Shown: positions 4,119 to 24,623 of the stretch, in pieces | Numbering within the stretch: position 1 is the stretch's first letter | Layout of the letters: each line of letters starts with the position of its first letter | DNA from: a virus | Lineage: Duplodnaviria; Heunggongvirae; Uroviricota; Caudoviricetes | Direction: 5' to 3' (one strand) | Virus record (IMG/VR): IMGVR_UViG_2913147268_000002 | DNA: 48,006 bases | The notes under the pieces: model-generated | The model's database searches: none | The model's input: only the letters and a program-made list of their open reading frames with translations | What the model was told of the DNA's origin: nothing | Program-made: the position numbers and the translations under genes

Positions 4119-5548
4119 CAAGCCGTGCTTGCGATTTGGGTATTATTCGTTCCCTGTCGCGCAGTTGGTGTTGTTGGCGTTCCGGTCAGTGCAGGACTAT
4201 TTAAGGGCGCTTTCTTGTTCGTTTCACCCATTACCGCCTTAACCGCTTTTGGCGTTGCCGCCAGTGACTCGGAAGTGCTGTTGGTCGCACTGCTGAGCTG
4301 TACTATCCCCTTTTTCGTCGTGCTCGCATCCTCAAGCGCCACGGCGGATGCAATATCCTCTGCCCGTTTTGCCGCTGTCTCGGCGCGCGTTGCCGCGGAT
4401 TCCGCCGTACTTTTGCTCTGAGCTGCCGCCGTCGCACTGCCAGCTGCCTCTGTCGCCTTCGTGGATGCCGTCGTGGCGCTGCCCTTTGCTGCTGACGCCT
4501 GTCTGGTCGCCTCATCTTTTGAAGCAGACGCAGATGATGCCGATTCAATGACAGCTCCGGCGAGATGAATATTACCGCAGCCAGTATCAGTAATGATTTT
4601 ATTATTGCCATAAGACCAGGAACCCTTGCACATCCAGTATGGATGGTTAAATGCTCCCTGAGAATCCAGCCACTCGATAAACTGTGCAGTCGTCCAGTTT
4701 CCTGTTGTTGTGCTTACTGACCCACCGAAGGCACGGCAGGCACCAATATTTTTCGTAAAGGTGTCTTTGCCAGGGATATCCGCACCGTTCTGATCTTTCT
4801 GCAGACGTTTCTCAGCATTGTCATTGGCTGCTTTTACTGCCTTTGGCGTTGCCGCCAGCGTTTCAGACGTGCTGTTGGTCGCGCTGCTTAGCTGGATTAT
4901 CCCTTTCTGTGCTGTCGTTGCATCCTGTGCGGTGTATTTCCCGGTGTCGCCGCCGGGCGAGGGTTTGATTTCCGGTGCCTTACCACTAATGAAGGCTAAG
5001 GTGCGACCGGCTACGTTCAGAATAGCAGTTGCCATACGATCGGGAATAATGCCACGACGCGCCCATGAGCTGAAATGCGTCGGGCGATTTGATGATACCC
5101 AGTTTTTGTTCGTTCGGGATGCCGAACCGTAATAACCAGACCCGGCAATATCAGGATCTTCTGACGGGTTGTTTGTCGGTGTATTAACTCCGCTACCATC
5201 GGTCATAAAGGGAACAAAATAAATCTGCTGGGATTCTTTACCTTTATATGCACCATATACCACTTCATATTGCGTACCGTGTTCTTGTTTCCACGCGTAT
5301 GTCGTGTCGCCACAAATCCAGGGGACTGATGCCGGACTTCCACCGTGACACTGCGCCGCCAGCCCGGCAAGGTCAGCACGGAACTGCTGTACCATTGCAA
5401 GAAATGCTGCTGGCTGCTGGGCGTAACTGGCATTCGTCATATCGAATTCCCCCTGCATCCAGCATATCGCCAGCAAAACGTTTTTCGGGTTTTTCTGCAA
5501 TGCTGCCTTCGTGCGGAAAAGCAGATCCTGATATAACGGCTTACCCAC
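4118..5548 (-). pseudogene. Chimeric ORF: SASA-type esterase fragment + tail-fibre tip segment + Stf central segment
   Basis: N-terminal part has ICWMQGEFDM, resembling the WYQGES motif of sialate O-acetylesterase (SASA) domains, but lacks the N-terminal half of such a domain. Middle has KGIIQLSSATNSTSETLAATPKAVKA and a Cys-containing tip (GNIHLAGAVIE). C-terminal part (SASSASASKDEATRQ...[10 protein letters not shown]) matches the lambda Stf central region and ends at a stop formed at the J-repeat junction. Confidence 0.5.
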
Positions 5549-16865: not shown

Positions 16866-17086
16866 AAGAACTTTTTCTTGCATTTGTGCCCCGGTTTATT
16901 AATGACCAGATCGCACTGACTGATAATGGTGAACAATATGAAATTGCCTGCAGCATGGTGGATGTGAATCCTGGCGAACGGTATGACGCGATGTGTGACC
17001 TGAAAATATTTACCTGGCTGGGTTGGGCTATTCCGTGTGGAGAACCAACCAATATTCGTCCGTTTGAGAGCAGGGAGGCTGTATGA
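16862..17086 (+). CDS. Hypothetical protein (74 aa)
   Basis: ORF with ATGA overlap to the upstream gene. Confidence 0.4.
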   Translation: MKELFLAFVPRFINDQIALTDNGEQYEIACSMVDVNPGERYDAMCDLKIFTWLGWAIPCGEPTNIRPFESREAV

Positions 17087-17273
17087 GTGAATTGAAAATA
17101 CGTCGCAAGGCAATAGCACGCGTTAAAAATCTATTACCAGTGCCTGTCAAATATCGTTTTTGTGGTGGGAATGTACGGATTGGTACGGATGTATGGTGAT
17201 TGCGGAGTGACGTAAAACGAATCGTTGTGGGTGTAATATCGTCAATATCATTGGTTTCCCGGAGGGAAAGGAC

Positions 17274-17495
17274 ATGTTTGGCGATAAACTGGAGTTACCA
17301 CGGAACGGGCGGATAGTGCTCTATATTTCAGATTACAAAGTAACCCGGGCTGAGGTGTTGGAACCGGAAAAACATCTGGTCACGTTACCGGACATTATTG
17401 AGTTGTATAAGCGGGTCGGATATGTGGACTTGCATCGCGATGATGTTCCCGTTGAGTGTATGGAATGTGAACACCGGAGGTTTGAAGTTGATTGA
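17274..17495 (+). CDS. Hypothetical protein (73 aa)
   Basis: RBS GGAGGGAAAGG before the ATG. Confidence 0.4.
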   Translation: MFGDKLELPRNGRIVLYISDYKVTRAEVLEPEKHLVTLPDIIELYKRVGYVDLHRDDVPVECMECEHRRFEVD

Positions 17496-17719
17496 ATTGA
17501 CTTAGAAAAAGTCCGGGGCTATAGTTTCCGCGCAGCCGCAAAATCGGTTGCCGGGATTGGCGTCCCGGATATCTAAGTGACGCATAGCCGCGTTAGCGGT
17601 TTTTTTATGTGTTAGGCACGGCCACATTCGCATTATGGTGGGCTGTGTGGGGGCTTCTGTGGAAGCGCCGGGTTCACTTAGCCGGTTACGCCAACCCTGC
17701 ACAGCTCACCACCAGATGA

Positions 17720-18556
17720 TTGGCGTCGCTGGTGGTGATGAAAAAAACACTAAGTGAGGCCACTGCGATGACAGTCCAAATATCTGCGGAATCCCTTTCT
17801 CCGCTACATCATAACCAACTTCCCGTCATCACTACTGAATTGCTTGCCAGTTTGTATGGCACGGAAGTAAATGGTATCCAGCAAAACTTCAAGCGCAACA
17901 TCGCCAGATTTGTCGTAGGAAAGCATTTTTTTAAGCTGGAAGGTAATGAATTACGCGACTTCAAAAACAGACTGACAGATAGTCAGTCAGTTGCTAAACA
18001 TACCCGATCCCTCATTCTCTGGACAGAACGCGGCGCAGCTCGCCATGCCAAAATGCTGGAAACAGAACAGGCCTGGGAAGTTTTCGAAAAGCTGGAAGAT
18101 TGTTATTTTAGCCAGCGTCCAGAGAGGCGGAGTACAACTACCGATGACCGTACTCCCTTGCGTGATGCCGTTAATATACTGGTCGGCAAGAAAGGCATGA
18201 TGTATCCCGATGCCTACACCATGATTCATCAACGCTTCGCCGTCTCTCACATAGAACAACTGTCACAGACGCAAATGTTAGAGGCGATTGAATACATCCA
18301 CTGCCTGCTACTCGATGAAAATCACCCAACCATTCCAGATTTTTCTTTTATCACCACTATCAAAAATGGAAAAGTGACCGGGATGCGCCATGTTGCCAAA
18401 GGCGAACATCTGATGACCTTTGACGCTTTCAAAGAGATCGCTGAGCGGGCAGGGTATCTGGTGATCCACAGCGACAATCTGCGAAGTATGACACTGGATA
18501 AATTGATGGTAATGGGGAAAAAGTCGGCTATATCCGTTGCTAATTCAGCATTTTGA
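17720..18556 (+). CDS. ORF6N-domain protein, putative antirepressor
   Basis: N-terminal region LPVITTELLASLYGTEVNGIQQNFKRNIARF...LILWTERGAARHAKMLETEQAWEVFEKLED resembles the ORF6N/KilA-N-related domain of phage antirepressors; start uncertain (17720, 17738 or 17768). Confidence 0.6.
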   Translation: MASLVVMKKTLSEATAMTVQISAESLSPLHHNQLPVITTELLASLYGTEVNGIQQNFKRNIARFVVGKHFFKLEGNELRDFKNRLTDSQSVAKHTRSLILWTERGAARHAKMLETEQAWEVFEKLEDCYFSQRPERRSTTTDDRTPLRDAVNILVGKKGMMYPDAYTMIHQRFAVSHIEQLSQTQMLEAIEYIHCLLLDENHPTIPDFSFITTIKNGKVTGMRHVAKGEHLMTFDAFKEIAERAGYLVIHSDNLRSMTLDKLMVMGKKSAISVANSAF

Positions 18557-18584
18557 CAGGTTGTTTGGGGCGGAAATACTCTAT

Positions 18585-18662
18585 TTGCGCTTAAAAAGGT
18601 ATTTGACCACGACCAGCACGAGACCGAATACCTCTGTCAAAGTACCGCCCATATAAAACAGT
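18585..18662. repeat. Direct repeat copy 1 (about 78 bp, about 90% identical to 22006-22084)
   Basis: On the minus strand encodes MGGTLTEVFGLVLVVVKYLFKRK plus stop, a duplicate of the 3' end of the gene at 22003-22608. Confidence 0.85.
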
Positions 18663-18683
18663 TACATATGCACTTGATGACTA

Positions 18684-18715
18684 AGCTGGCACCAGGTTAA
18701 CACCTGGCGCCAGCT
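18684..18715 (-). terminator. Hairpin downstream of the lipoprotein gene
   Basis: 14-bp inverted repeat AGCTGGCACCAGGT / ACCTGGCGCCAGCT (one mismatch), loop TAAC; no clear U-tract. Confidence 0.4.
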
Positions 18716-18730
18716 TGAAGGAGACTTCAG

Positions 18731-19654
18731 TTATTGGTTTCTGAGGAAAGCGATTCTTGAAAGGGTCATTTGCGTCTGGCAGTCGACCATTTTCTTGACT
18801 TCAGCATCTGTTCCCTGCATTGAAACTTTACCGCACATAGCATCCTTAGTTTTGATCCACTGACGCTGAGAAGGCAGCAAATCTTTTTTCTTCGCCGGGG
18901 TTAACTTGCTCCAGACGGTACTCAAATCAGAGTCGGCATTCGCAAATGCCATTCGGGACTGATCAAGGTTGTCAGCTTTTTGCGGCTGAAGTTGTGCCTG
19001 TCTCTCTATTTGCTTCTCCGCCTCATACTTAGCCTGTTCTTGCGCCCTGAGTTGCACCTGTTGTTCCGCTTCAATTTGACTCTGTTGGGCATCCTTAGCC
19101 TGCTGGATTTTCTGCTGCTCAACGATCGGGGTGATAATGGAAAGCGATGTCAGTAAAGCGGCGCCCACTGATATCGGATTATCAGTAGAGGTTTTTACAA
19201 AAACGTTTTTCTGATCGTCGGTCGCCTGCACGGTGTAGGTGATACGTTTTGAAAAGGCGTTTGCGTTGTTCTCCAAAAACAGGCTTTCCATTTGCTTATC
19301 GAGATTACGATTAAAATTCTTTCTGTAAGCATCTGAAAGCTGGACGTACTCGTTCGCAGATAGAGTCATCGTCACGGTCCCTTCACAAGTTTTCATTGTG
19401 CTGCCCGTGTCACTTGATGTTGTGGAGATCTCAGAGATGGCTAGTTTGATCTTGTCCAGTGTGCTTCGTTTGGTCTGATTAGTGACATCAGGGTATTTAT
19501 CGACCTGTTCAGAGAGTCCTTCATAAGCAGATTTTTTTAATAAATCCATGAGAGCTGACTGGGTTATTTCCGAAGAACAACCGATCTCATCTTTTTTGTT
19601 ATCACAGCCTGTAAGGGCAATGGCGAGTAAGAGTACTGAGTATTTTAATCTCAT
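18731..19654 (-). CDS. Lipoprotein with C-terminal DUF1311 (LprI-like) domain
   Basis: Signal peptide plus lipobox (LLLAIALTGC); Gln/Glu-rich coiled region; C-terminus PSQRQWIKTKDAMCG...QMTLSRIAFL resembles DUF1311; RBS AAAGGGA. Confidence 0.7.
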   Translation of the reverse strand: MRLKYSVLLLAIALTGCDNKKDEIGCSSEITQSALMDLLKKSAYEGLSEQVDKYPDVTNQTKRSTLDKIKLAISEISTTSSDTGSTMKTCEGTVTMTLSANEYVQLSDAYRKNFNRNLDKQMESLFLENNANAFSKRITYTVQATDDQKNVFVKTSTDNPISVGAALLTSLSIITPIVEQQKIQQAKDAQQSQIEAEQQVQLRAQEQAKYEAEKQIERQAQLQPQKADNLDQSRMAFANADSDLSTVWSKLTPAKKKDLLPSQRQWIKTKDAMCGKVSMQGTDAEVKKMVDCQTQMTLSRIAFLRNQ

Positions 19655-20841
19655 GAATTCCCTTTAGAGTAAGGATTGGTTTTTAAGACGCGGTCTGTAA
19701 TCAGTCCCGAGAGCTACAGTAAACAACGCTGAGCACTGAACGCATCACAGGTAAGGTAAAAGGTGATATCGGCAAAGGCTGTGAAACCTTTAATTCAACA
19801 GATGGGAACGGTATGCGCAGGATCCTGTAACGACGCTCCCAAAACCGGAAACCTGTAAGGCATGTTTTCGCTGCTGAACTTAATATACGAACCTGCACTA
19901 TCATGAACATATTTTATATCGTTATACCCCGAGTGATTGTGCCCGGCAATGGATAGTGTCCTGGAGGAACTATTTCTACTGTAAAAGGTAGATATTTAAT
20001 TTCAGTTTTGAATTATTCCCTGCTGTTAATAACAATGGCTGTATATGGCACCGAGTAGGCATTTTTTCGCTTACTGAAGGGCAGCTGTGAGCGAGGAACA
20101 GACTTTCCCTACTTCGTTGAGAGTACACCTAGTACAATCAAGGCTAAATGATAAAAATATACAAAATATCATATTTATGATATATATAATGGCATTAATC
20201 TTATTCTTGGATTACGTTGAAAGGGTAATATTATATTTGTGTAACATAGTTTAGATAACAATGCCGTTATGGGGGGGGAAAGACATTTCAACATATTAGC
20301 TTTGTATCTAACGCTCATGTAGATCTCGATTTTGAACTTAAAGAACAATTATTTTTTAGAGAGCAAGGTATTTTTGGGGAACAAAAACATAAAGTAATGG
20401 AGAGAGGAGAATGTATCAAAAAATCATCGATTTAATTTAGATTGTCCGTATAGTTGGGGGTAAGTCGAATCGCTGGGCTACATGGAATATTGTGTCAAGT
20501 AAAAATATATTTCAATCTTGCAATAACCGATTGTTGAAAATAATGTCAAATCTTAATGGTGAATGGGGAGAATATAATAAACATGAGTCGATATTATGCA
20601 AATGGATTTAAATATTTTATACCCGAAGACATAGGGTTTCGAGAGTTCGATGAGACTACTTTGAATGCTTTCGAATTTGCTGGCTAAAACATATAGGTTA
20701 TATCTTACATCTGTTTGTAATGGAGCGTAGATGCGACAAGCTACACCATAATAATCATATTATGATATATTGTTAAGTTGTTATGGCATTAAATAAAATT
20801 ATGTCATTTTGTTAACCAAGCAAGAATCAAAGGACTTTTAG

Positions 20842-21540
20842 ATGGGTACGGCATTAATTTCAAGCTTTATTAGTGGTGCAATAGCTATAATCTCTATTGC
20901 TATATCTACTTATAATCAGAATAGAATAAACAAGCTCAATGAATCACTGGATGTAAGGAGAAAACATCAGTACTATATTGAACCGTTAATTCGCTCAGCT
21001 TCAGACTTACAAAGCCGTATTTATAATATATTAGAATTGGGGTTCATTGAAGAGTTTTATCATAATGGGAATAAGCGCCAACAAGATTATGTTATCAACA
21101 ATACTGTTTTTCTTTTTTCCCAGTTTTTTGCATGGACAGAAGCTGCCCGCATAGACATTCAATACCTTAGCCTAGAAAAAAATAAAAAAATGAGGGAGTT
21201 TATTAGATTACAGAACAATATTAACTCATTAATCCAAACAGACGTCTTTGGTCAGTATTTTATGTTTTTCATAGGAGAGCAGAGAGCTATTGCAGAAAAG
21301 ATGCTGATATCAACAGATACTGGATTTGATTGCATAGGTTACGGCAGTTTCACAAAGGAAAATTGCTTTATCAATGAGCCATTTTTTTTAGATTTAAACA
21401 ATGAAGTGATAAATATGACAAGAGATATCGGAATTTATAAAGAAAGGCTAATCAGAATACAGCACGCGTTAATCGATTTAATTAATTTTCTTGATCCTGG
21501 CATGATTCGATTTGACGGAAAAAAATATGGAAAAATATAA
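20842..21540 (+). CDS. Membrane-anchored hypothetical protein (232 aa) in AT-rich cargo island
   Basis: N-terminal TM helix (TALISSFISGAIAIISIAISTY) followed by a soluble domain with no family I recognise; RBS AAAGGA; own downstream 12-bp-stem hairpin. Confidence 0.65.
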   Translation: MGTALISSFISGAIAIISIAISTYNQNRINKLNESLDVRRKHQYYIEPLIRSASDLQSRIYNILELGFIEEFYHNGNKRQQDYVINNTVFLFSQFFAWTEAARIDIQYLSLEKNKKMREFIRLQNNINSLIQTDVFGQYFMFFIGEQRAIAEKMLISTDTGFDCIGYGSFTKENCFINEPFFLDLNNEVINMTRDIGIYKERLIRIQHALIDLINFLDPGMIRFDGKKYGKI

Positions 21541-21724
21541 CCCAGATGATTCGTATCAAGGTAAGTTGCTATATGTATCAATTTAATTATGGTTGGGTGA
21601 AATTTATGTTAATAGTAGCGGAGGGTTAGTTAAAATATGCTCTCAGTGATTTTTGGATAGTTCTTTTATTTATCATTGAAAGTAAATATGTATAGCTTCA
21701 AGATTTACAAGTGAATCTGTTTAT

Positions 21725-21758
21725 TGACAGTCCGCTTATGGCACAGAGCGGACTGTCA
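21725..21758 (+). terminator. Terminator-like hairpin after the 232-aa gene
   Basis: Perfect 12-bp stem TGACAGTCCGCT / AGCGGACTGTCA with a 10-nt loop, followed by T/A-rich sequence. Confidence 0.5.
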
Positions 21759-21956
21759 TATTAAATTTGGCTCCACGCCATAGATGTGTCAGCTCATATC
21801 TTATCTAATACACACAATAACTTTCTCATTCTTGGAGAATTATTTTTTTAAGGGTAGGTGTTGACGTTAGAGCAAAAGAATGGTGATTTTTTTGATGTGT
21901 ATTACGTTGGAACTGATGGGAATAACTATCTGTTTTCAACGCACTGCTAATTTATC

Positions 21957-21978
21957 AAGGCCCTTTGATCAGGGCCTT
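21957..21978 (-). terminator. Hairpin downstream of the gene at 22003-22608
   Basis: AAGGCCCT-TTGATC-AGGGCCTT; no U-tract. Confidence 0.35.
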
Positions 21979-22002
21979 CGAAAGACTGTTGGACCGAGAG
22001 AG

Positions 22003-22608
22003 TTACTTGCGTTTAAAAAGGTATTTTGTCACGACCAGCACGAGGCCGAATACCTCTGTCAAAGTACCGCCCATGTACAACTGTAGTGTTAAATCCTCAA
22101 ATTCCAGCTTACCTGCGCCGTCGGCAATAAATACACCATTCATTATCAGAAGTTGGAAAGCAAGGATAATCAGGAACCATTTCCCGTATCGTTTTTTTAG
22201 AGCGATTTCTGCTTCAAAATCTTTGTTGTTGAGTTGTTTGCGCTCATGCTCGGTATCAAGTGAATTCACCTGTTTCACAGATGTGAACTCGGTCAAGATT
22301 TTACTCTCAGTACGGGTGACTTGTTGAGAGGGTGTAGCAGTTGGAATTCTTTTGCTAGACGCAGCTACAGCCATTTTGCGAGCTTCGGCAGCTCTTTTTC
22401 TGGCTATTCCGCGAATACGGACAGCCGTTTTTTTGGGGGCGTGCGAAACCTTTGGCTGAGGTGAAGCTTCGTCAGGAGACTGAACCGGAGTTTCATCGTC
22501 CTCCGGCTCAACCTCTTCTGCTAACTGACGGTGTAGGTTGAGGGAATCCTTCAGTCTGCGTGCTACTTCCTGTTTGAAACGGCTGTTAAAATCGTCATCC
22601 GATGGCAT
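22003..22608 (-). CDS. Membrane protein (201 aa), charged N-terminal region and two C-terminal hydrophobic helices
   Basis: WFLIILAFQLLIMNGVFIA and GGTLTEVFGLVLVVTKYLF; starts 10 nt after the ImmA-like stop, so probably co-transcribed. Confidence 0.6.
   Translation of the reverse strand: MPSDDDFNSRFKQEVARRLKDSLNLHRQLAEEVEPEDDETPVQSPDEASPQPKVSHAPKKTAVRIRGIARKRAAEARKMAVAASSKRIPTATPSQQVTRTESKILTEFTSVKQVNSLDTEHERKQLNNKDFEAEIALKKRYGKWFLIILAFQLLIMNGVFIADGAGKLEFEDLTLQLYMGGTLTEVFGLVLVVTKYLFKRK
22006..22084. repeat. Direct repeat copy 2
   Basis: Matches 18585-18662; here it is the genuine 3' end of the 201-aa gene. Confidence 0.85.
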
Positions 22609-22617
22609 TTTAAAGCG

Positions 22618-23106
22618 TTACCCCAACCTCAAGTTCTTTAAACGATAAGTCATCGCATCGTCAGATACGCCAAAATAATGCGCCATTATATAACTTGGTT
22701 GACCGTCAGCGTGCAGTTTTCTGACCTCATCTACCGGCATCAGAAGTTCTGCTGCGAACTTGTTTGCAAAAATTTCATCAGGATGCGTTCCGGCGCTTGC
22801 GGTTTCGCCACGTAAATCAACGTACTCATATTCATCGCTATGCGATGCTTGCCGGGCGATGTAATGCCCCAACTCATGCCCACATGAAAAACGTTGACGA
22901 ACTTTGTTGTCATCACTGTTTAGAAAGATCGCTGGATCTTGATCTTTTTGTTTAATCAGTGCGCCAGAAACTTTCCCAGGAAGATCGGTAATAAAAACAT
23001 CTAATCCCATGTCGTGAGCAATTTTCGCTGGATCAACAGGGAAACCACGCCCGCACCAGAACGTGTCCAGCACTCGCCGGGCGTGCTCTCTTGGGTTGGT
23101 AGCCAT
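22618..23106 (-). CDS. ImmA/IrrE-family zinc metallopeptidase (COG2856-like)
   Basis: HEXXH in FSCGHELGHYI and downstream EIFANKFAAELLMP motif; strong RBS GGAGGA. Confidence 0.8.
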   Translation of the reverse strand: MATNPREHARRVLDTFWCGRGFPVDPAKIAHDMGLDVFITDLPGKVSGALIKQKDQDPAIFLNSDDNKVRQRFSCGHELGHYIARQASHSDEYEYVDLRGETASAGTHPDEIFANKFAAELLMPVDEVRKLHADGQPSYIMAHYFGVSDDAMTYRLKNLRLG

Positions 23107-23504
23107 AGCTCCTCCAGTTACTGCATTACGATTATTGGTTGAAATATAGACAGCATGTTCCGTACCACATTCCTGTAAAAGTGCAAATTCTGCACTTCTG
23201 GTACGATATTAACTGTTAGTAGTAAAGTCTTCCAGATAAATCACTTTAAAATCTTGTGAATTGCTTGCTTTTTACGCTGTATTGTGGATGGTTCAATGTT
23301 TCCAGTAAAAACATACATGATAATCATGAGTTTAGTGTTTTTTTAGGCGTCTATATGTTTCTGGAAAATACAGGTCTAACCTGATCTTATCGTTGAGATT
23401 TTTTGTACTCAGTATGCGTGAACGATTCGACCAGGTGACTGTGTACGTGAAGAAGACCGCCCTTAATATTTTAAATGTGCAACCCCTCAGAAGAGGGGCT
23501 ACTC

Positions 23505-23738
23505 TCACTTCTGCAGTATCTCGCCAATACCTGCCAGATTCTCGTCCATCTTGTCACCGTTTTCGATAAGGATGGAGTTGAGCCGATTCAGTTGCATAGC
23601 AATTTCAAGTTTGATTAAGGTATCCACCGATACACCAGTTTCTTTTGCTAACTTAGTAAGAGCCGCAGCTCGATTGGCTAAATTAAAATCATCGAACTCA
23701 TAACGACTTCTGCACGGCTGGTTGCCTAACGTACCCAT
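23505..23738 (-). CDS. Hypothetical protein (77 aa)
   Basis: ORF with a downstream hairpin (CCCCTC-AGAA-GAGGGG); possible HTH-like segment, unverified. Confidence 0.4.
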   Translation of the reverse strand: MGTLGNQPCRSRYEFDDFNLANRAAALTKLAKETGVSVDTLIKLEIAMQLNRLNSILIENGDKMDENLAGIGEILQK

Positions 23739-23981
23739 AGTGATTCCTCATGATATAAAGACCCAACAATATAAATTACCAGGCACATCATAAGATAGGG
23801 TTCCAGCCCATATTTTCAAATATTTGCAAGTATCACCGTTCAGTCTAAAAAGTTGGATGATGATTTAACGAGCCATAACAAAACCCTGCCTCGGAGGTTT
23901 TTTCTTTTTTATAGAACTCAGCGGCGTGAAAACGAATAATAAATTGTGCAAATAGTGCAGTTTTTATTATTCGAGGTAATT

Positions 23982-24623
23982 ATGAAAACCTTCTATGAGG
24001 ACTGGCCTGAAACTTTCGTTAGCCGGTTAGATATGTTACGGGCGTTGGATGATCGCGGTTCGACCCGGAGGCTCTATCTTGAACGGACCGGGGCAATATT
24101 TGACGCTCTGGCAGAAGAGATACGTACAGTCGTTGCCGGGCATCCTGAAATCGACGTGAGTGAACTTGATATCGGGCCGCTGTATCGCTATTACAAACGT
24201 GGAGAAAAGGGGAATCCGCTGGCTGACTTACTTATTGAGTTGGCTCCACCAACTTGTGAACGGGTTCGTATATCTCCTGAAGTGTACATAATCCCGTATC
24301 TGTTTTTTGCACTGTTGATAGCGCAAGGCGCTGACAACGATGCCCGCGATTTTTTCAATATGATGATGCGACCGTTAATCATCGCCTACCGTTTCAAACA
24401 ACTGGCGCGATACCTGGGAACAAAGGGCGGAGGACGACCACAGCACAGATTAAAAAGCGAAGCCATTGAACTGGCTGATCGTTTTTTTACTGAAAACCCG
24501 ACAGCGCCATTATCGCGTGGCGTGCAATACATATCCGGTATTTTTGTGGCGAAATACTCTGACCCACCTGCAGCGTCGACGATTAGAAAATGGTTAATTC
24601 CAATTTACAGGAGTGATAAATAA
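23982..24623 (+). CDS. Hypothetical protein (about 213 aa)
   Basis: ATG at 23982 preceded by GAGGT; no recognisable domain. Confidence 0.5.
   Translation: MKTFYEDWPETFVSRLDMLRALDDRGSTRRLYLERTGAIFDALAEEIRTVVAGHPEIDVSELDIGPLYRYYKRGEKGNPLADLLIELAPPTCERVRISPEVYIIPYLFFALLIAQGADNDARDFFNMMMRPLIIAYRFKQLARYLGTKGGGRPQHRLKSEAIELADRFFTENPTAPLSRGVQYISGIFVAKYSDPPAASTIRKWLIPIYRSDK

Follow-up and report, generated by a model that had tools for sequence, protein, structure and literature searches.

The window, that is, the whole stretch of 48,006 nucleotides analysed here, carries a prophage of the lambdoid type in which positions 19655-20841 separate an LprI-family lipoprotein gene from a gene encoding a 232-residue protein. 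The interval is bordered on one side by the lipoprotein gene, beyond which come an ORF6N antirepressor gene and a C4/isrK immunity RNA module; on the other side the 232-aa gene is followed by a 201-aa gene and a gene for an ImmA/IrrE peptidase. EC958, JJ1886 and many other E. coli ST131-type chromosomes carry the interval at 100% identity, and it is found in 446 of 5,426 complete genomes; neither in EC958 nor in any other listed genome does RefSeq place an annotated feature within it. The features that we recognise at the locus are the following.

18731-19654, minus strand: LprI-family lipoprotein gene, one flank of the interval
19655 to about 20066, no strand assigned: prophage backbone upstream of the divergently oriented LprI lipoprotein gene, 98% identical in the E24377A and HY220605 prophages
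About 20067-21790, plus strand: mobile cargo cassette (pseudogene, 232-aa gene and terminator), common to the P2-like Z-region (P2-EC58, GDAR2-2)
20170-20268, plus strand: native 5' flank of the former ~150-aa gene, aligning to the upstream DNA of intact members in loci L012 and L015
20269-20687, plus strand: pseudogene of a ~150-aa PD-(D/E)xK nuclease-like family, located by tblastn to intact members
20271-20278, plus strand: G8 homopolymer right after the pseudogene ATG (20269-20271), codons 2-4 of the old gene
20583-20687, plus strand: 34-codon ORF, C-terminal remnant of the pseudogene, aligning to residues ~124-151 of intact proteins
20688-20841, plus strand: spacer between the pseudogene and the 232-aa gene, 83.6% identical to P2-EC58
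20842-21540, plus strand: 232-aa gene, the other flank of the interval
21725-21758, plus strand: cassette terminator, a hairpin with a 13-bp stem and a T-rich tail

A preliminary description of this locus had presented the interval as extremely AT-rich and devoid of ORFs of at least 60 residues. The first label suits the right two-thirds (32% GC at 20067-20841, the same value as in the 232-aa gene) but not the left part (42% GC at 19655-20066), and it overstates the composition of the interval as a whole (35.6% GC). As to the second, the stretch is gene-free in RefSeq, but the minus strand has a 69-codon ORF at 19701-19910, which lacks annotation and does not look like a gene. Farther upstream, positions 17519-17716 (plus strand) match the Rfam families for c4-a1b1 targets, isrK and C4 antisense RNA, with bit scores of 53-80 that all exceed the gathering scores, directly upstream of the ORF6N/KilAC antirepressor gene (17720-18556). 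The C4/isrK RNAs and the antirepressor constitute a P1/P7-type antisense-RNA immunity module within the lambdoid prophage.

The interval is built of two parts. Homology to the E24377A and HY220605 prophages ends at about 20056-20066, to the right of which the cargo differs, and resumes at about 21997, just ahead of the 201-aa gene. The left part, 19655-20066, has no match in P2-EC58 or in the phage collection, and a distant blastn search with 19655-20090 against phage records returned no match. The similarity to AJ512683 runs from about 20074-20084 to about 21790. The cassette thus bounded (~20067-21790) totals about 1.7 kb at 32% GC and consists of roughly 750 nt of ORF-free DNA, the 232-aa gene and the hairpin terminator, the last being kept in both P2-EC58 and GDAR2-2; in GDAR2-2 the cassette is placed between the tail sheath and tail fibre assembly genes. 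No flanking inverted repeats of the kind annotated in P2-EC58 were found around the window's cassette. The backbone part and the cassette part of the interval, the latter being the 5' half of the cassette, are unrelated to each other. The literature on P2-EC58 and on the RefSeq protein accession yielded only mentions of the Abi-P2 reverse transcriptase, which is unrelated and sits elsewhere, or nothing at all.

The presence of different genes at this position in E24377A and HY220605 marks it as a cargo hotspot. The E24377A cargo (L026 4453-7267) encodes a 186-aa protein, an HNH endonuclease and a LEM-3-like GIY-YIG protein, and that of HY220605 (L027 4627-6419) a 65-aa protein, a GIY-YIG nuclease and a 134-aa protein. 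At 18582-18662 and 22004-22084 the window contains two directly repeated copies of an 81-nt sequence, with 89% identity. The second of them forms the 3' end of the 201-aa gene (22003-22608, minus strand); the first, just past the antirepressor gene, is a stray duplicate. As the two copies bracket the LprI gene and the cassette, they suggest a recombination scar delimiting the hotspot. At the right edge of the hotspot stands the conserved pair formed by the ImmA/IrrE metallopeptidase (22618-23106, minus strand), which matches the PADLOC capP model (E=2.4e-25) as well as RmrA models, and its downstream partner, the 201-aa protein, which belongs to no family and has a hydrophobic C-terminus.

The ORF-free portion of the cassette retains clear homology to a protein family. 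With the intact member P0121 as query, tblastn against the window gave E=3e-22, and five further members gave values of 1e-10 to 1e-20. The intact members align to 20277-20669, sharing one frame over the N-terminal third and the C-terminal fifth, between which the sequence is scrambled. A codon-level alignment to the intact L012 gene reveals seven deletions, of 10, 2, 11, 26, 1, 2 and 1 nt, together with in-frame stops, and the catalytic residues are lost (D60N and E71G, FDLG having become FNLD and VECK having become VGGK). The longest ORF left in the pseudogene is 43 codons, and this copy cannot encode a PD-(D/E)xK fold. Six of the seven deletions are common to the window, P2-EC58 and GDAR2-2; the death of the gene therefore predates the transfer of the cassette between P2-like and lambdoid prophages. 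The identity between the window and P2-EC58 is 74-85% per pseudogene segment, corresponding to a Jukes-Cantor distance of 0.25, against a dS of 0.16 for the neighbouring 232-aa gene in the same pair. On this comparison the pseudogene drifts at or slightly above the neutral rate and has lost purifying selection. The interval lacks a long ORF because the first gene of the cassette is dead, as its lesions, its stops and its neutral drift indicate.

A third copy of the cassette, found in public sequencing-run assemblies (L003-L005), encodes a 232-aa protein that is 85% identical to that of the window. L003 is the least-decayed copy: its upstream region holds ORFs of 63 and about 90 codons, preceded by AAGGAG and split by one frameshift in an A-run, and joining the two yields a 150-aa protein. 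The frameshift, at 4560-4580, is a -1 change in the A-run (CAAAAAATA vs CAAAAAATTA). The same 63-codon upstream ORF is present in L003, L004 and L005, which are independent assemblies, so that the frameshift is probably real and recent. The reconstructed protein has 1,551 homologues of about 150 aa, with up to 87% identity, and no match in Pfam, NCBIfam or PADLOC.

The intact ~150-aa members are modelled by AlphaFold with a pLDDT of 88. They share the alpha-beta-beta-beta-alpha-beta core and an E...D...ExK motif that is invariant, and the closest solved folds are XisH-like 2okf, AF1548 1y88, the CdiA-CT toxins 4g6v/4g6u and NgoMIV 1fiu. From this modelled fold and the catalytic D...(D/E)xK motif, we assign the intact relatives to the PD-(D/E)xK superfamily as predicted nuclease-like proteins. 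They differ from the superfamily at large in having no named function, and the window copy in having lost the catalytic D and E. The family is large (more than 1,500 proteins in Proteobacteria, Chloroflexota, Planctomycetota, Deinococcus and Firmicutes, and one from a record titled as an archaeon) and unusually conserved, with 50-63% identity across phyla, and carries neither a name nor a Pfam, NCBIfam or PADLOC model. The intact relatives considered here comprise proteins P0121-P0240 and loci L012-L020 and L028-L107. In E. coli TA054, the ~150-aa gene adjoins a Cap4-nuclease gene and a UvrD-like helicase gene.

The same homology accounts for the 34-codon ORF (MSRYYANGF...EFAG); the preliminary description had allowed for a small regulatory protein in the region. 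The ORF does lie at 20583-20687, but a longer ORF of 43 codons, opening with the ATG at 20556, encloses it. Its translation MSRYYANGFKYFIPEDIGFREFDETTLNA aligns to the family C-terminus CQYYINRFKHLIPAGVELWEYDEVVMSA, with the tblastn pattern YY.N.FK..IP......E.DE, and it is the final stretch of the old frame that is still without a stop. A genuine small-protein gene of 34 (or 43) codons could draw on the open frame, its ATG and the purine-rich stretch upstream; however, in P2-EC58 and GDAR2-2 the ATG is replaced by TTG and a TAA stop occurs at codon 20, and the ORF segment, 75% identical to P2-EC58, is among the two least conserved segments of the cassette. The G-rich sequence resembling a ribosome-binding site exists as GGGGAG, but it ends 12 nt ahead of the ATG, beyond the usual Shine-Dalgarno spacing, and the 34-aa peptide has no match in Pfam, NCBIfam or PADLOC. 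We consider a small-protein gene extremely unlikely, and the segment is the C-terminal remnant of the pseudogene.

The 5' end of the pseudogene carries the G homopolymer. There is a single G8 run, the longest G/C homopolymer of the window, and it occupies 20271-20278 rather than 20272-20279 as first given. Whether it is unusual depends on the scale: across 48 kb, dinucleotide shuffles contain on average 0.98 G8/C8 runs (at least one in 57 of 100 shuffles), which the single run of the window matches, but such a run is rare in the 775-nt AT-rich segment (29 of 20,000 shuffles). At this place the sequence is GTTATGGAGTTTATTCTGATGGGAAAG in intact genes, GTTATGGGGGGGGAAAG in the window and GTTATGGGGAGATGAAAA in P2-EC58, which puts the G-run at the 10-nt deletion, at the very beginning of the old frame, and in the lambdoid copy only. 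The corresponding site is not a G-run in P2-EC58 and GDAR2-2 (GGGGAGATG) nor in L003, which has GGG. The run probably arose at the wrecked 5' end, directly behind the old ATG.

Tract lengths were compared across isolates with 81-82-nt probes centred on the tract and queried against E. coli genomes (n=413). Variation at the tract, which had been proposed as a check, was indeed found: exact matches to G8 occur in 185/413 genomes and to G9 in 196/413, and the remaining 32/413 comprise 28 near-identical and 4 more divergent copies, with G7 or G10 in those sampled. Strains whose names point to one series also differ, 4/0, 4/1-1 and 2/0 having G8 and 4/4 having G9, and likewise Esc21 and Esc25 having G8 and Esc9 having G7. 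As a control we used a G7 run within a 546-aa ORF of the same prophage, which is unchanged in 419/429 genomes (98%). This near-invariance indicates that assembly error is far too rare to produce the 45/47% split, with the reservation that the control, one base shorter and in a coding gene, is an imperfect one and leaves some room for errors at G8-G10. Lineage structure, as opposed to repeated slippage, may account for part of the near-even division between G8 and G9.

Poly-G tracts that change length are the basis of phase variation at contingency loci, as in surface and restriction-modification genes of Neisseria, Haemophilus and Campylobacter. The tract of the window resembles these in standing straight after a start codon and in differing between close isolates. 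Unlike them, it restores no full-length protein, and relatives keep the neighbouring gene without the tract. The ORF from the ATG at 20269 is 17 codons long at G8, 55 at G9, 9 at G7 and 10 at G10; the frame shared by G6 and G9 gives 54-55 codons, and 55 is the longest ORF at any tract length. The suggestion of a functional slipped-strand switch is not supported: no tract length comes near 150 aa, the catalytic region is deleted or mutated whatever the length, and in-frame stops and six other deletions disrupt the gene as well. Judged by the features that define contingency loci, the tract shows two (a 5' coding position and length variation) and lacks the two that bear on function (an ON state and conservation of the tract with the gene). 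Most likely, it is a neutral, slippage-prone homopolymer inside a pseudogene. With no selection acting on it, the run would slip freely and so yield G7-G10 among near-identical ST131-type genomes; we infer that this slippage has no phenotypic consequence.

A subtler switch can be imagined, in which translation of the leader (17 vs 55 codons) alters Rho-dependent polarity or mRNA stability and hence the expression of the 232-aa gene some 570 nt downstream. Several observations are in line with it. The length polymorphism occurs among near-identical genomes, including strains whose names point to one sampling series, and no strong promoter stands immediately upstream of the 232-aa gene, where the only candidate (20770-20799) scores 9/12, no better than chance. 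The native upstream flank of the dead gene has also been retained. The 20084-20269 segment is 88% identical to P2-EC58, somewhat more than the pseudogene body (74-85%), which is compatible with weak constraint on a promoter. Since the old gene's 5' flank can still be recognised, transcripts may arise from the region, and the promoter of the dead gene could still fire, giving the 232-aa gene a long leader. That about 100 nt ahead of the old ATG align to the flank of intact genes is the sole basis on which we accord a small weight to G-tract-modulated expression through translation-dependent polarity. Yet P2-EC58, GDAR2-2 and L003 keep the 232-aa gene under purifying selection without such a tract, the leader drifts neutrally, 232-aa homologues elsewhere have short and unrelated upstream regions, and the neutral hypermutability of a G8-G10 run already accounts for the polymorphism. 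A true phase-variation switch of this kind is accordingly highly improbable, and slightly more improbable still is its extended form, a co-opted phase-variable rheostat in which ribosome reach (17 vs 55 codons) tunes Rho-dependent polarity and thereby the expression of the membrane-anchored 232-aa protein. If the rheostat were true, ST131 populations would contain a mixture of states for a putative function in superinfection exclusion or defence.

The ORF-free DNA had also been considered as a possible source of a small RNA. That about 750 nt of non-coding DNA accompany the 232-aa gene in two phage backgrounds would suit a structured small RNA or a cis-regulatory leader controlling that gene. 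An Rfam scan of 17000-24000 at E<=1, however, returned nothing within 19655-20841 and, besides the C4/isrK RNAs, only chance-level hits elsewhere, and minimum free energy z-scores of 150-nt windows in the cassette part, computed for both strands against dinucleotide shuffles, range from -1.6 to +1.8. The region diverges at least as fast as the synonymous sites of the adjacent gene, and protein homology to the intact family fully explains its sequence. The small RNA proposal therefore finds no backing, and we give it, or a cis-acting leader structure, only a minute chance of being correct beside a decayed protein-coding gene. The only low folding z-score, -2.45 at 19730-19879 (minus strand; 1 of 28 windows), falls in the conserved backbone upstream of LprI and on the strand of that gene, and this segment could be part of the 5' leader of the LprI gene, or a chance value. 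A scan for promoters and terminators found 12 promoter-like sites, against 12.1 expected by chance, and only the terminator hairpin stands out. The promoter predicted in P2-EC58 by its depositors (TTAAAA-18-TAGAAT) maps inside the 34-codon ORF; it was discarded as not conserved, the -10 element being TAGGGT in the window.

The 232-aa gene, a member of a 'lysogenic protein' family, is intact. Its product is modelled (pLDDT 87) as a helical bundle behind a hydrophobic N-terminal helix; it has 290 homologues, belongs to no Pfam or NCBIfam family and matches weakly (E=1.8e-5) the PADLOC model RTasTM, a reverse-transcriptase-associated membrane protein. Between the window and P2-EC58 the identity is 94%, with a dS of 0.16 and a dN/dS of 0.25, and the dN/dS of more distant pairs is 0.12-0.14; on these ratios the gene is under purifying selection. 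Its AAAGGA ribosome-binding site (20829-20834) is kept in all four copies. The gene recurs in phage cargo sites, namely the P2 Z-region, positions beside integrases and a Providencia P2-like prophage. We regard it as a candidate superinfection-exclusion or defence gene.

The cassette originally comprised two genes, the first for the ~150-aa nuclease-like protein, now dead, and the second for the membrane-anchored 232-aa 'lysogenic protein'. One may ask whether the pseudogene and its neighbour are relics of an obligate two-gene defence system, a nuclease with a membrane protein, of which ST131 keeps a crippled half. In the window, in the P2-like prophages and in L003, three lineages in all, the two genes stand side by side in the same orientation, and in L003 the first is broken only by the single frameshift in its A-run. 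However, no 232-aa homologue occurs within 3 kb of the intact 150-aa gene at any of 80 loci, and no 150-aa homologue is next to the 232-aa homologues in Providencia (P2-like prophage), Erwinia, Lonsdalea or L006, where the neighbours are unrelated. Moreover, the purifying selection on the 232-aa gene persists long after the death of the nuclease gene. The two families are not a functional pair, and an obligate two-gene system, very unlikely, was rejected for this lack of co-occurrence elsewhere. We infer that the dead DNA persists only because of its place, with the cassette boundary on one side and a selected gene on the other; the promoter or 5' leader of the 232-aa gene may still lie within it.

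Based on the homology, the lesions and their sharing between phage types, the divergence rates and the length polymorphism observed here, we consider that the stretch consists of prophage backbone plus the remains of a decayed nuclease-like gene next to an intact 232-aa gene, and that the G-run is neutral, with a probability of roughly 0.88. The ORF-free stretch first noticed is real but largely ordinary: unannotated backbone and a pseudogene with a slipping poly-G tract.

Such remnants have a published context. A 2026 survey found that nearly all P2/P4 elements carry pseudogenes, of which ~90% are small intergenic remnants, roughly half are in defence-associated loci and most resemble genes of unknown function; its authors read these remnants as the debris of intense recombination (PMC13586616). 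The window offers a comparable case, a short, unannotated and ORF-free relic of an uncharacterised gene in a variable cargo locus, beside an intact accessory gene, and its cassette also occupies the P2 Z-region. Unlike the surveyed remnants, this copy was carried dead between phage types, from P2-like to lambdoid or the reverse, and gained a hypermutable G-run. The pseudogene is a clear example of recombination debris of the P2/P4 style.

For annotation, a 1.2-kb stretch that over 400 complete E. coli genomes leave unannotated, those of the ST131 reference strains EC958 and JJ1886 among them, can now be resolved into backbone and a pseudogene of a defined family. The cargo cassette moved between P2-like and lambdoid prophages with a dead gene aboard, which fits the published picture of hotspot recombination leaving intergenic remnants. 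The G8/G9 polymorphism will appear in ST131 studies as a recurrent variable site or an apparently phase-variable locus, and is most likely inconsequential. Possibly more important are two by-products of this analysis, the uncharacterised ~150-aa PD-(D/E)xK family and the conserved family of the 232-aa cargo gene.
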